From Dictyostelium discoideum (Eukaryota): a stretch of 64,000 nucleotides of DNA. This document shows positions 19,088 through 20,926 of this stretch, one piece after another. The stretch covers positions 1,856,001 to 1,920,000 of the forward strand of contig CM000154.2 of the NCBI GenBank assembly GCA_000004695.1. Reading direction: 5' to 3'. Each line of letters opens with the position of its first letter. Positions within the stretch are counted from its first letter, which is position 1. Made by a program: the position numbers and the translations under genes. Below the pieces are notes generated by a model. That model was not told the DNA's origin, did no database searches, and saw only the letters and a list, made by a program, of their open reading frames with translations.

Positions 19088-19123
19088 AAATTAATAAAAT
19101 AAATAAATAAATAAATAAATTAA

Positions 19124-19162
<39 letters not shown>

Positions 19163-19434
19163 ACTATTATTGTTTTTAAACACTTTTTTTATTTATTTTA
19201 GATGGAATTACTTTTTCTTTTTTATAGGTATTGTTTTTTTTTTTTTTTTTTTTATTTAATCAAATTATCTATTTTTCAATCAATTTGAATTGATGGATCA
19301 ATGAAAGTATTTGAAGAGAAATGTTAAATCCTTAAAATTATTTAAATTTTTTGTTGAGTTTCTAAATTGTTGAAACTATTATTAATAAACTTGCTATAAT
19401 ATCATCCAGGCCCAACAATTTTTAGACAAAACAT

Positions 19435-19660
19435 ATGGTAAATAATGAATTTCAAATTTATTTGAATAATTATAATAGTAAATGGCGTTGGCAATGCAAT
19501 CATCATTATCTCAGAGATTTCATTTCTAACGCTATTTACAAATTAAATTATTCAAGTAAATATAAAGTTCATTATCTACCATTTGGTTTGTATAAAAATC
19601 ATTTGGGCAAAGATGATAGAATATCCAAGTTTATCAATAATGGTTTCAACGTTTTATAAA
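19435..19660 (+). repeat. Copy A of a locally duplicated element. It contains the small ORF ..[59 protein letters not shown].
   Basis: The same element recurs inverted at 20270-20536 (minus), and its 3' part recurs direct at 20556-20640. Confidence 0.5.
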
Positions 19661-20269
19661 CTCATCAAAAAACTAATTAAAAAAAATAAAAGTTTAATGG
19701 TTGTCAATAGTTGTTTTTTTTAATTTTTTTTATAATTTTTAAAGTTTTAAAGTTTTACCTTTTATTACATTCTGTGCAATTGTTTACCACATTTATTGGG
19801 AATTGGAATTTATAATGTAATAGATCTATACAATTGTTAAAATGATTAATTAAACTTGGATTGATAGTTGTACCAATTTTTTAAATTTACCATAAAATCC
19901 AAATGCTCTTTTGTTTGTTTTATTCATTAATTGTAATTTTTTTTTTTTTTTTATTATTGTTTTTTATTTTTAACCAAAATAATTTACTATTTGTTGAAAT
20001 ATAAATATAATTTTTTGTTTGTGTAAATAACTGAATAAAAAAAAAAAAAAATTTTATGTAAAAAAAAAAAAAAATTTTATATATATATGTAAAAAAAAAA
20101 AAAAAAAAAAAAAATAATGTTTGGGAAAAAAGAAAATAAAAAAATTAAAAAAAATTAAAAAGTTAATTATAATAAACAATAAAAAATAATAATAATAAAA
20201 ATTAAAAAGTTTTATTGTAAAGTTGGGACAAAATTCTAATTGCACAGAATGTAATGAAAAGGTATAATT

Positions 20270-20640
20270 TTAAAACTTTATATATAATAAAAAAAAAAAA
20301 ATTAAAAAAACTACAACTATTGATAACCATTTAACTTTTATTTTTATTAATTTATTTTTTGATGAATTTTGACTATTATCACCACCAACGCCTATAGAAT
20401 TTTTTGGCAAGTCAAATGGTAAATAATGTACTTTAAACTTACTTGAATTACTTAAATCGAAAATTGCGTTTGAAATGAAATCTCTGAAATAATGATGATT
20501 GCATTGCCAACGCAATTTCCGATTTAAGTAATTCATTATTTATCATATACTTTGCCTAAAAAATCTTTTGGCGTTGGTGATATAATAGCCAAGTTTATCA
20601 ATAATGGTTTCAACAATTTGGAAACTCAACAAAAATATTT
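20270..20640. repeat. Copy B of the element: an inverted 5' part (20270-20536, minus) joined to a direct 3' part (20556-20640). The junction overlaps (PK[NK]S[IF]GVGGD is encoded on both strands).
   Basis: DNA-level identity to 19490-19660. 'ggcgttggtg' is present in both orientations at about 20381-20395 and 20570-20581. Confidence 0.5.
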
Positions 20641-20685
20641 AAATTATTTAAAGGATTTAAAATTTTTCTTCAAATACCTACATTT

Positions 20686-20870
20686 CATTGATCAAATTAA
20701 AAATCTTTATAAAAATCCTTCAAAATTTAATAATCTTTCAATTTTTGATTTCATGTCAATATTTTCTTTATCAATTGCTTCAACACCAATTTCTTAAAAA
20801 ATAATAAATAAAATAAATAAAATATAAATAAATAAATAAACTATTATTGTTTTTAAAAACTTTTATTTAT
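20686..20870 (+). pseudogene. Duplicated fragment of the prpD 3' end (last about 37 codons ..[36 protein letters not shown]) plus its 3'UTR.
   Basis: Near-identical to 18970-19160 (the prpD C-terminus and the ...aataaataaactattattgtttttaaa... tail). It has no upstream PrpD coding sequence. Confidence 0.7.
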
Positions 20871-20926
20871 TTAATTTCATTTAATTTCATTTTTATTTTT
20901 TATTTTTTATTTTTTATTTTTTATTT

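Follow-up and report, generated by a model that had tools for sequence, protein, structure and literature searches.

Nested direct and inverted repeats downstream of prpD in Dictyostelium discoideum: a probable lineage-specific rearrangement scar

The locus and its ancestral spacing

The window, a stretch of 64,000 nucleotides (nts) analysed as a whole, belongs to Dictyostelium discoideum chromosome 5 and carries an insert between the convergent prpD (DDB_G0288681) and Q_salvage genes. The prpD product matched EAL63072.1/XP_636596.1 exactly and contained the Pfam domains MmgE_PrpD_N and MmgE_PrpD_C. The repeats found downstream of prpD were statistically far above chance. The features are given below in window coordinates, with the evidence on which each was placed in brackets; E is an element of about 0.8 kb located upstream of a truncated prpD copy (psi-prpD), and FIR, FIW and FIY are isolates with the insert.

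17609-19087, forward strand: prpD (2-methylcitrate dehydratase, DDB_G0288681), the intact parent gene (open reading frame, ORF)
18977-19252, forward strand: A1, first copy of the direct repeat; prpD codons ~457-492, stop, and 3′UTR/intergenic DNA with a (TAAA)n array (repeat alignment to 20687-20928)
19253-19295, no strand: linker joining the first intergenic copy to the left arm (present in FIY at 82%; L005 527-582 aligned with window 19231-19286)
19296-19781, forward strand: left arm (winL), old inverted duplicate of E (repeat alignments)
19324-19697, no strand: inner hairpin of the left arm, two arms of ~180 nt, centre near 19510 (79% over 91 nt; fold)
19435-19659, forward strand: 74-aa ORF (..WRWQCNHHYLRDF..) spanning the hairpin centre, judged non-coding (ORF list)
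19782-19953, forward strand: ext, single-copy continuation of E (88-93% minus-strand matches in L005, L007 and L008)
19954-20198, no strand: low-complexity A/T spacer, GC 8% (L005 638-747 aligned with the reverse complement of window 20150-19967)
20199-20693, reverse strand: right arm (winR), copy of E (88.8-90.6% to FIR and FIW)
20270-20536, reverse strand: 88-aa ORF, counterpart of the 74-aa ORF in inverted orientation, judged non-coding (ORF list)
20340-20650, no strand: inner hairpin of the right arm, centre near 20489 (20444-20535 self-complementary at 82%; fold)
20626-20797, forward strand: psi-prpD tail, codons ~438-492 and stop (tblastn aa 440-490, 72%, E=4e-17)
20687-20928, forward strand: A2, second copy of the direct repeat; psi-prpD codons ~457-492 and copy of the 3′UTR/intergenic DNA (repeat alignment)
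20927-22113, reverse strand: Q_salvage (PF10343) gene, convergent with prpD (ORF, Pfam)

Eight orthologous loci of 13.5 kb each were compared, four from insert-free relatives and four from the D. discoideum clade with the insert. Between the prpD stop codon and Q_salvage, D. citrinum has 187 bp, D. firmibasis 153 bp and D. cf. discoideum FIZ 105 bp; in D. dimigraforme, where Q_salvage is not found downstream of prpD, the next gene is 223 bp away. Because the gaps are this short (105-223 bp) in the insert-free relatives, Q_salvage is taken, on sequence comparison, to be the ancestral immediate neighbour of prpD. A second prpD copy is absent from all four of these relatives. With the insert, the gap is 1833 bp in the window and in the independent assembly GCA_054883475.1 (L001), 1863 bp in FIY, 1450 bp in FIR and 1327 bp in FIW. 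The identity of the prpD coding sequence, 92.0% for FIZ, places this isolate outside the group of AX4, FIR, FIW and FIY (96.6-97.6%). As a separate observation, the downstream junction of prpD is a synteny break in D. dimigraforme too.

A duplicated prpD tail

In overall layout, a large inverted repeat (19296-19781 and 20238-20693) lies between the two copies of a direct repeat (18977-19252 and 20687-20928). The two copies of the direct repeat are 93.4% identical over 152 nt (18980-19131 with 20690-20840, E=1e-61), in agreement with the first-pass annotation, which had noticed a copy of the prpD 3′ end and 3′UTR at 20686-20870. The similarity continues through the UTR at 84.6% over about 130 nt (19126-19252 with 20803-20928), and A2 abuts the stop codon of Q_salvage. 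Upstream of 20687 the psi-prpD sequence extends to about codon 438 with a moderate score (z=3.3, 5 of 1000 shuffles), and 20651-20797 is annotated in AX4 as the gene model DDB_G0288721 (48 aa, Q54II9). Two properties mark the copy as a pseudogene: its homology with prpD includes the non-coding flank (3′UTR and intergenic DNA), and it is a truncated, disabled copy beside an intact parent that is single-copy in the outgroups.

Other remnants are found at the same place in the isolates. FIY has a psi-prpD segment corresponding to aa 122-278 with stops and frameshifts (E=1e-49) and a third UTR-like copy (z=5.7), and behind the first intergenic copy a pseudo-fragment of the Q_salvage 3′ end is present, with z=13.1 for FIY and z=4.6 for FIR and FIW. 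Because of these remnants we read the prpD tail copy, from its sequence context, as what is left of a tandem segmental duplication, and not as a 3′ gene fragment captured by an element, as had first been proposed. It resembles unprocessed (duplicated) pseudogenes in that it adjoins its parent in the same orientation without the 5′ part of the gene, includes the 3′UTR and downstream flank up to the 3′ end of the neighbouring gene, and decays by deletions, stops and frameshifts that differ between isolates. Unlike a plain tandem-duplication pseudogene, at least two rounds of duplication seem to be needed, and the remnants are interleaved with the ~0.8 kb of E.

The large inverted repeat

The arms of the large inverted repeat are 486 bp (19296-19781) and 456 bp (20693-20238) long, separated by a spacer of 456 bp, and 382 of 502 aligned positions are identical when indels are included. 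One block of 289 nt is 80.6% identical (E=4e-54) and another of 132 nt is 85.6% identical (E=5e-31), and the two arms are 18% diverged. In winR, 20238-20693 pairs with the left arm, and 20199-20237 is a part of E without a counterpart in the left arm, where it has been lost. The outer ~65 nt of winL resemble the reverse complement of prpD codons ~438-456, with a moderate score (reverse complement of 19296-19375 against prpD 18915-18979, z=2.7, 15 of 1000 shuffles). The GC content of E (23-24%) is well above that of the adjacent A/T spacer (8-9%), and an open core of 43 codons is kept in both AX4 copies, a hint that E may once have been coding or foreign sequence.

The arms had first been described as a unit of about 230 bp at 19435-19660, present once directly and once split, its 5′ part inverted and its 3′ part direct. 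Related ORFs do lie at 19435-19659 and 20270-20536, but the real arms are the 486 and 456 bp given above, and the second copy is inverted as a whole. A direct match does exist between 19568-19671 and 20532-20635 (79%, 104 nt, E=8e-15), and the apparent split into an inverted and a direct half arises because each arm is itself a hairpin of ~370 nt, so that nested palindromes were misread. The ~30 bp reported in both orientations was likewise seen, and it comes from the internal palindrome of each arm.

Weak tblastn matches to aa 131-156 prompted the idea that the arms of E are scrambled prpD. This was rejected, as each of the 10 arms, when aligned locally with the prpD coding sequence, had a short best match, and these fell at inconsistent positions (aa 28, 135, 160, 314, 359 and 410), and no significant prpD homology was found in the inner a2 arms of the hairpins or in the 43-bp linker (z=-0.6, 0.8, 1.2 and -0.3). 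Conversion between the two large arms was also looked for, and only about 3 of 391 sites fitted it.

Haplotypes of the isolates and order of events

The four insert-bearing isolates of the D. discoideum clade show differing states of decay. E is single-copy in FIR, FIW and FIY, where it is colinear both with the reverse complement of window 19296-20150 and with window 20199-20693; winR is the ortholog, in position and orientation, of this single copy. The ext segment adjoins the single copy of E in L005, L007 and L008 and is inverted in the window haplotype relative to FIY, FIR and FIW, and the A/T spacer is inverted relative to FIY. A locus with two oppositely oriented copies, and relatives with just one, is what is expected of an inverted duplication, and the local duplication-inversion suggested in the first-pass annotation is borne out.

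Although winR is 88.8-90.6% identical to FIR and FIW, winL is only 80-82% identical to every other copy. This is not due to acceleration of winL, since the distance to FIY is 0.207 for winL and 0.215 for winR, and 17 sites group winR, FIR and FIW against winL. The copy tree and the relative-rate test rule out a recent, AX4-specific inverted duplication; the AX4-type inverted copy is old and pre-dates the split from FIR and FIW. Either FIR and FIW have lost the inverted copy, or the right copy may have gone on recombining with alleles that were not inverted, from which the left copy was cut off.

Two details complicate the order of events. In FIY the order is permuted (E, psi-prpD 438-456, UTR-like copy, then psi-prpD 122-278), which probably needs an extra round of duplication. 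In addition, the left arm is without a 46-bp piece predicted by every simple one-step model, and therefore a later deletion must be assumed. The left novel junction carries a 14-nt quasi-palindrome, ATTGATGGATCAAT, and the junctions, at about 7% divergence per lineage, are too diverged for reading microhomology.

Inner hairpins and paired changes

Each large arm contains a quasi-palindrome, which in the left arm pairs 19411-19501 with 19516-19606 at 79%. Folding as single-strand DNA (DNA parameters) gave -93.4 kcal/mol (z=-12.8) for the left hairpin and -81.4 kcal/mol (z=-10.8) for the right. The right hairpin is almost perfectly paired, probably through correction of one arm against the other, with only 2 broken pairs and 5 clustered double changes, and 29 pairs are broken in FIY and 19 in winL. 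When the hairpin arms of the five copies are compared, all a1 arms form one cluster and all a2 arms another. On sequence comparison, the inner quasi-palindrome pre-dates all five copies of E.

Across the five hairpin copies, 89% of pair cells are kept, and 16 pairs are changed on both sides, against 6.8±2.0 in shuffles (0 of 500 as high) and 1-6 in slid controls. The double changes sit together in tracts that are specific to individual copies (permutation p=0.003, 0.002 and 0.03). Concentration in a few such tracts is expected of template switching or conversion rather than of independent compensation, and this pattern points to arm-to-arm template switching. It agrees with template-switch models for hairpins (PMC8794818, PMC5453318, PMC8604942) and is like quasi-palindrome correction and short template-switch mutations in the same reports, in that neighbouring positions are altered on both arms and pairing is kept. 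Unlike in the usual cases of quasi-palindrome correction, the hairpin arms here are unusually long (~180 nt), and their surroundings are intergenic, non-coding DNA in a genome that is very rich in A and T.

Selection on the hairpin could alternatively account for the excess of paired double changes. The ~370-nt hairpins would then be functional, as a young, lineage-specific hairpin-RNA or miRNA-like precursor or as a cis-acting DNA structure between the convergent genes, and the very stable folds, the pair cells kept and the double changes just described all favor this, as does a sub-threshold miRNA-like Rfam match. Both folds have the stability looked for in a hairpin precursor of a miRNA locus, and D. 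discoideum miRNAs come mostly from intergenic hairpins (PMC6161686), which these resemble in being intergenic and stable. Unlike those hairpins, they are far longer than the listed precursors of ~105-180 nt. No miRNA from the table checked, Liao et al. 2018 Table S1 (the newly reported candidates and two from Meier et al. 2016, as distinct from the 17 earlier ones of Avesson 2012), has its locus here, and none aligns with the region even when 3 mismatches are allowed. The Rfam scan gave sub-threshold miRNA-like matches only, the best being mir-4637 at the right hairpin with 36.9 bits, short of the gathering score of 89 that membership in the curated family takes, and the tRNA scan of the region found none. 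Furthermore, the RNAalifold covariation term was unfavourable (+14), and the clustering of the double changes in few copy-specific tracts and the broken pairs in FIY and winL count against pairing under selection. We therefore regard a functional hairpin as unlikely, although it is compatible with the structural history proposed below.

Mobile element, coding sequence or artefact

The first-pass annotation also offered a mobile-element footprint. E would then be a foldback or MITE-like mobile element, or its footprint, inserted downstream of prpD, with the inverted repeats as its terminal inverted repeats. E does have long inverted repeats without convincing coding capacity, like foldback transposons, MITEs and thug-S, it is present or absent among close relatives, and its GC content is higher than that of the surrounding spacer. 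Unlike foldback transposons and MITEs, it showed no dispersed copies in the sequence searched: beyond the two local ones, no further copy was found in the 64-kb window or elsewhere in the eight 13.5-kb orthologous loci, the four insert-free ones included, and no predicted protein resembling its ORFs was found in at least 10 annotated Dictyostelium assemblies. No short target-site duplication was found around the inverted repeats; the direct repeats on either side consist of ~240-275 bp of prpD tail and UTR, which makes them a segmental duplication, and prpD and Q_salvage pseudo-fragments accompany them in the isolates. At its outer end the large inverted repeat appears to carry local, prpD-derived sequence, in which case the arm was copied in situ. 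The position of E is the same in all four insert-bearing isolates, as expected of one origin followed by vertical descent. Nor does E resemble the palindrome-associated family thug-S, a multi-copy, intron-bearing DNA transposon of Dictyostelium (PMC4894637). Taken together, neither the window nor the loci of the relatives gave evidence of a mobile element, and we consider this origin quite improbable. A metagenome scan with the conserved 20-nt core of the hairpin returned four GC-rich contigs that shared the seed only, and these were set aside as chance matches.

The small Cys/His ORFs (WRWQCNHH) might be a duplicated pair of protein-coding genes, as the frames of 74 and 88 aa are open in two diverged copies within AT-rich DNA, pN/pS over the 43 shared codons is 0.46, and one annotation takes the 74-aa ORF as exon 1 of the 139-aa model KAM9947384.1. 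This pN/pS rests on 7 synonymous and 15 non-synonymous differences and, by a rough calculation, is not significantly non-neutral. The differences are spread evenly over the codon positions (7/7/8), and three of the five copies have in-frame stop codons, namely FIR and FIW (WRW*CNH) and FIY. winR has diverged from FIR and FIW to the same degree as the flanking intergenic DNA (85-88%). The centre of a DNA palindrome falls inside the ORF, and frame-shifting indels have left the two ORFs with unrelated N- and C-termini. No homologue was found in protein sets of 5.8 billion and 1.84 billion sequences, except for a satellite-translation artefact (P0129, a 1003-aa translated tandem satellite in the full HMMER search, with a score due to summation over repeats), and no Pfam domain was detected; a word-indexed protein search with the ORFs gave no match. 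The small Cys/His ORF noticed earlier is thus not a conserved gene. A gene pair is very improbable, and we judge the ORFs to be non-coding by-products of the rearranged DNA.

Palindromes and AT-rich low-complexity DNA are hard to assemble, but there is next to no chance that the structure is an artefact of mis-joined or collapsed repeats, the outcome on which the first-pass annotation would have been withdrawn, since GCA_054883475.1 reproduces the order with both arms and A2 100% identical and a difference of 4 nt in the spacer, three further isolates have related orthologous structures, arms that are 18% diverged are not collapsible duplicates, and the psi-prpD tail ORF is present in the AX4 reference annotation.

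Proposed history and meaning

The repeats are real but ordinary, being the non-coding remains of tandem duplications at the locus and of two later rounds of inverted (foldback) duplication, and the locus is no new gene, no demonstrated mobile element and no new kind of system. We consider it highly probable that the 1.84-kb stretch between prpD and Q_salvage in AX4-type strains is a lineage-specific, structurally polymorphic, non-coding rearrangement scar with a staged history of duplication and inversion.

In this history, prpD and Q_salvage started ~100-220 bp apart, as the insert-free relatives show. After the divergence of FIZ, to judge from the remnants, a block that began within prpD (at codon 122 or earlier), took in the 3′UTR and the intergenic DNA and reached into the last ~10-15 codons of Q_salvage was probably duplicated in tandem at least twice. 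The extra copies would then have been eroded by deletion, differently in each lineage, so that AX4 retained codons ~438-492 and the UTR, FIR and FIW ~12 + 5 codons, and FIY aa 122-278 and an additional UTR copy. By the timing seen in the arm comparison, E had already folded back into a quasi-palindrome of about 2 × 180 nt. Soon after the branching of the FIY lineage, and long before AX4 parted from FIR/FIW, one event probably inverted the segment made of the A/T spacer, ext, E and psi-prpD 438-456 while a second copy of its ~495-bp right end stayed in place. Its outcome would be the observed inverted repeat of 486 and 456 bp around the 456-bp spacer, and a 46-bp deletion in the left copy probably ended this step. 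Finally, the short-loop hairpins appear to be under continuing correction, arm against arm, by short tracts of template switching or gene conversion.

The layout of the window fits an inversion that duplicated one end. Such an event could be an inversion in which one end broke in a staggered way or, with the same outcome, a pair of replicative template switches, and the template-switching or foldback-type processes named at the outset remain the best mechanistic candidates. Inversions by staggered breaks with inverted duplications at the breakpoints have been described (Ranz et al. 2007, PMC1885836), and the window relates to the single-copy haplotypes in exactly the three parts that the staggered-break or two-switch (FoSTeS/MMBIR-type) model has: an inverted copy of the end, an inverted unique segment, and the original end in place. 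Unlike the described breakpoint inversions, the scale is very small (~0.9 kb inverted, ~0.5 kb duplicated), the duplication is at one breakpoint only, and the inverted copy misses the 46-bp piece; the junctions are too diverged for confirming the chemistry of the breaks.

The main value of this result is practical and concerns annotation. DDB_G0288721/Q54II9 (48 aa), KAM9947384.1 (139 aa) and KAM9995838.1 (128 aa) are annotation artefacts and not genes; these three hypothetical proteins stem from prpD pseudogene fragments and palindromic non-coding DNA. The hairpins might, with little probability, be a young hairpin- or small-RNA locus of the D. discoideum clade, or a cis-acting fork-stalling structure that makes the locus a recurrent rearrangement hotspot. 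If either were true, the haplotypes would be a natural series for the de novo birth of a structured RNA or a fragile site by template switching. The rearrangement scar itself is a compact natural example of tandem duplication, foldback or inverted duplication and arm-to-arm template switching stacked in a very AT-rich genome, with isolates that keep different states of decay, and it illustrates that an excess of seemingly compensatory hairpin changes can stem from clustered templated events and not from selection.

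Structure of the region between prpD and Q_salvage

The window belongs to chromosome 5 of Dictyostelium discoideum. The prpD gene and its downstream neighbor Q_salvage are convergent, and the 1.84 kb between them is the region under study. When 18900-21000 was compared with the whole 64-kb window by strict self-BLAST, three strong non-trivial relations were left, the first of which has a weaker continuation.

Genes and repeats of the region (window coordinates)
17609-19087: prpD, 492-aa ORF identical to DDB_G0288681, probable 2-methylcitrate dehydratase (PrpD)
20927-22113, minus strand: Q_salvage gene (PF10343), next gene after prpD
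18980-19131 and 20690-20840: direct repeat, 93.4% over 152 nt, E=1e-61
19126-19252 and 20803-20928: continuation of the direct repeat, 84.6%
19300-19585 and 20684-20413: inverted repeat, block 1, 80.6% over 289 nt, E=4e-54
19658-19781 and 20369-20238: inverted repeat, block 2, 85.6% over 132 nt, E=5e-31

Together the inverted blocks make up two arms, 19296-19781 and 20238-20693, which lie 456 bp apart and are identical at 382 of 502 positions including indels. Each arm is itself a quasi-palindrome (left, 19411-19501 against 19516-19606, 79%; right, 20444-20535, self-complementary, 82%), and single-strand folding of each arm gives a hairpin of ~370 nt (z=-12.8 and z=-10.8 relative to dinucleotide-shuffled sequence). 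The first-pass annotation described the second copy as split into an inverted 5′ part and a direct 3′ part. The direct match between 19568-19671 and 20532-20635 is real (79%), but it arises because of the internal quasi-palindrome of each arm, and the whole copy is inverted. A (TAAA)n microsatellite in the prpD 3′UTR (19088-19163), whose length differs among isolates, matches similar arrays at 25122-25183 and 48680-48825 (reverse complement) by 88-98%; it is ordinary low-complexity DNA, yet it raises repeat counts.

An assembly artefact, the possibility raised at first pass, is excluded, since both arms and the prpD-tail copy are 100% identical, in unchanged order, in the independent assembly GCA_054883475.1 (locus L001). 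Over window positions 11602-25121 (13.5 kb) there were 5 mismatches and 9 gaps, mostly intergenic; the sampled coding and intron pieces of prpD and Q_salvage were 100% identical, and the intergenic DNA upstream of prpD was 97.7% identical with 7 gaps. These differences indicate two assemblies or strains that are distinct, though close relatives.

Orthologous loci and age of the insert

The 90% cluster of prpD contained orthologues in eight further assemblies, from which seven loci were fetched.

Distance from the prpD stop to the end of Q_salvage
Window and L001: 1833 bp
D. cf. discoideum FIY (L005): 1863 bp
D. discoideum FIR (L007): 1450 bp
D. discoideum FIW (L008): 1327 bp
D. cf. discoideum FIZ (L006): 105 bp
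D. citrinum (L002): 187 bp
D. firmibasis (L003): 153 bp
D. dimigraforme (L004): 223 bp to the next gene, which is not Q_salvage here

Identity of the prpD CDS to the window was 97.6% in FIR, 97.4% in FIW, 96.6% in FIY, 92.0% in FIZ and 84-88% in the other species. Taken together, the gap lengths and these identities indicate that the insert arose once, after the divergence of FIZ. Q_salvage was not found by tblastn within 6 kb downstream of D. dimigraforme prpD (L004 7486-13485), its place being taken by a gene for 164 aa and by a TgrO1-like Ig gene. Synteny is therefore broken at the prpD 3′ junction in this species, a hint that the site rearranges recurrently.

FIR and FIW have in common an AT-rich insertion of ~315 bp within the first prpD 3′UTR/intergenic copy (L007 region ~376-690 and its equivalent in L008), which is 92% identical between the two and absent from the window and FIY. 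FIR alone has an insertion of ~75-100 bp inside the ~0.8-kb arm sequence (E), between C and the single-copy continuation of E at 19782-19953 (ext), at L007 region ~1014-1113. It contains …gaagaaagatcacttctttcgatatccctttcatcggttacac…, is GC-richer than the surrounding DNA, and has no counterpart in FIW, FIY or either window copy.

Origin and age of the inverted duplication

FIR, FIW and FIY each have one copy of E, in the position and orientation of the right arm of the window. This single copy is colinear with the right copy at 20199-20693, and along its whole length it is also colinear with 19296-20150 read in reverse complement (left arm, ext and the adjoining A/T spacer). Compared with these haplotypes, the window has the segment consisting of spacer, ext, E and putative psi-prpD (prpD pseudogene) 438-456 inverted, and also keeps in place a second copy of the ~495-bp right end of this segment, in agreement with the duplication-inversion suggested at first pass. 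Such a layout would result if the inversion had a staggered break at one of its ends, as in the model of Ranz et al. 2007 (PMC1885836), and two replicative template switches would yield the identical layout. The left copy lacks 46 bp (equivalent of 20199-20237), for which a later deletion would be needed. At its left boundary (19281-19309) the left arm has a 14-nt quasi-palindrome, ATTGATGGATCAAT, and where the right arm joins the strong repeat of the prpD tail there is a palindromic octamer, TTGATCAA (20688-20695); both are short and strongly diverged, and may mark former break or switch sites.

Within E, identity of the right copy to FIR and FIW was 88.8-90.6%, in line with that of the flanking intergenic DNA (85-88%), and identity of the left copy to each other E copy was 80-82%. 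The left copy has not evolved fast; its distance to FIY in the 391 shared columns was 0.207, that of the right copy 0.215, and 17 sites in these columns group the right copy with FIR and FIW, excluding the left. Divergence of the left copy at a normal rate indicates that the inverted duplication is older than the split of the reference strain AX4 from FIR and FIW, and sequence distances suggest that it is roughly as old as the FIY split. Either the left copy was lost in FIR and FIW, or exchange with uninverted alleles continued in the right copy, the inverted copy being isolated. Signs of conversion from one large arm to the other were confined to ~3 sites.

Paired changes in the hairpin

When each of the five E copies was divided into the two arms of its inner hairpin (a1 and a2) and these were clustered, all a1 arms grouped together, as did all a2 arms, and thus the inner hairpin predates all five copies. 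Standard pairs occupied 89% of pair cells across the five, and 16 of 128 pairs had changed on both sides, compared with 6.8+-2.0 pairs in shuffled data (0/500) and 1-6 pairs when the partners were slid. The double changes were clustered in copy-specific tracts.

Clustered double changes in individual hairpin copies
Right window copy: five, columns 170-184, permutation p 0.003, 2 broken pairs
Left window copy: four, columns 122-132, permutation p 0.002, 19 broken pairs
FIY: three, columns 92-98, permutation p 0.03, 29 broken pairs

A few multi-nucleotide arm-to-arm copying events fit this clustering better than many independent compensations, and the template switching proposed at first pass is supported to this extent. 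The copying could have occurred by quasi-palindrome correction, short template switches or gene conversion, which are documented in other systems (PMC8794818, PMC5453318, PMC8604942). That the hairpin is functional is improbable: the RNAalifold covariation term was unfavourable (+14), Rfam matches of the region were far below threshold, and none of the miRNAs in Table S1 of Liao et al. 2018 maps to or matches the region, 17 earlier miRNAs being outside this sequence check.

Origin of the prpD tail and of E

The prpD 3′ fragment had been regarded as captured. The FIY gap contains a prpD pseudogene piece of aa 122-278 (75% identity, E=1e-49) with stops and frameshifts, directly preceding the distal UTR copy, and also another UTR-like copy, the third in FIY (z=5.7). 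Right after the first intergenic copy, FIY (z=13.1), FIR and FIW (z=4.6 each) have the last 10-15 codons of Q_salvage as a pseudo-copy. In the window, prpD homology upstream of the strong repeat was detected to about codon 438 at 20626 (z=3.3, 5/1000), to which psi-prpD probably extends, and this stretch appears to recur in reverse complement where the left arm has its outer end (z=2.7, 15/1000). The pseudo-fragments and the extension in the window indicate that the tail was not captured but is a remnant of a tandemly duplicated block. This block, which would run from within prpD across the intergenic DNA into the 3′ end of Q_salvage, was apparently duplicated at least twice, and the extra copies would have decayed through lineage-specific deletions.

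That E is a mobile element or the footprint of one, as considered at first pass, is improbable on the sequence covered: no further E copy was found in the 64-kb window or the eight orthologous loci, and a metagenome scan gave chance seeds only. The direct repeats flanking E are gene-derived and ~240-275 bp long. The miRNA-linked repeat thug-S of D. discoideum is a transposon that contains an intron and occurs in multiple copies (PMC4894637). E and the remainder of prpD showed no consistent homology, and the GC content of E (23-24%) is between those of exons (35%) and local spacer (8-9%).

Open reading frames and annotated proteins

A small Cys/His ORF was pointed out at first pass. Its WRWQCNHH frame reads WRW*CNH with further stops in FIR and FIW, and is broken in FIY. 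The two window copies differ at 22 sites over the 43 shared codons, distributed 7/7/8 by codon position, and pN/pS from the 7 synonymous and 15 non-synonymous differences was 0.46, which by rough calculation is not significantly off neutrality. The ORF spans the palindrome centre, and the unrelated ends of its two versions are due to indels. A word-indexed search of 5.8 billion proteins gave no homologue, the sole match in an exhaustive HMMER search was a translated satellite, and Pfam gave no domain. Judged from these sequence comparisons, the ORF is not a gene.

Annotated proteins overlapping the structure
DDB_G0288721 / Q54II9 (48 aa; window 20651-20797): psi-prpD tail alone, AX4 reference annotation
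KAM9947384.1 (139 aa; L001 7825-9183): first 50 codons of the ORF spliced to the psi-prpD tail over a 0.94-kb 'intron'
KAM9995838.1 (128 aa; L005 8325-9110): FIY psi-prpD, aa ~125-240, with a Pfam PrpD_N match

The reference protein Q54II9 begins with M where the window codon is AAG (K), indicating either that window and AX4 reference differ in sequence there or that the start codon was forced.

The structure is a fresh instance of well-known processes, and the main practical consequence is that these three 'hypothetical proteins', though annotated as protein-coding, look like pseudogene or palindrome artefacts.
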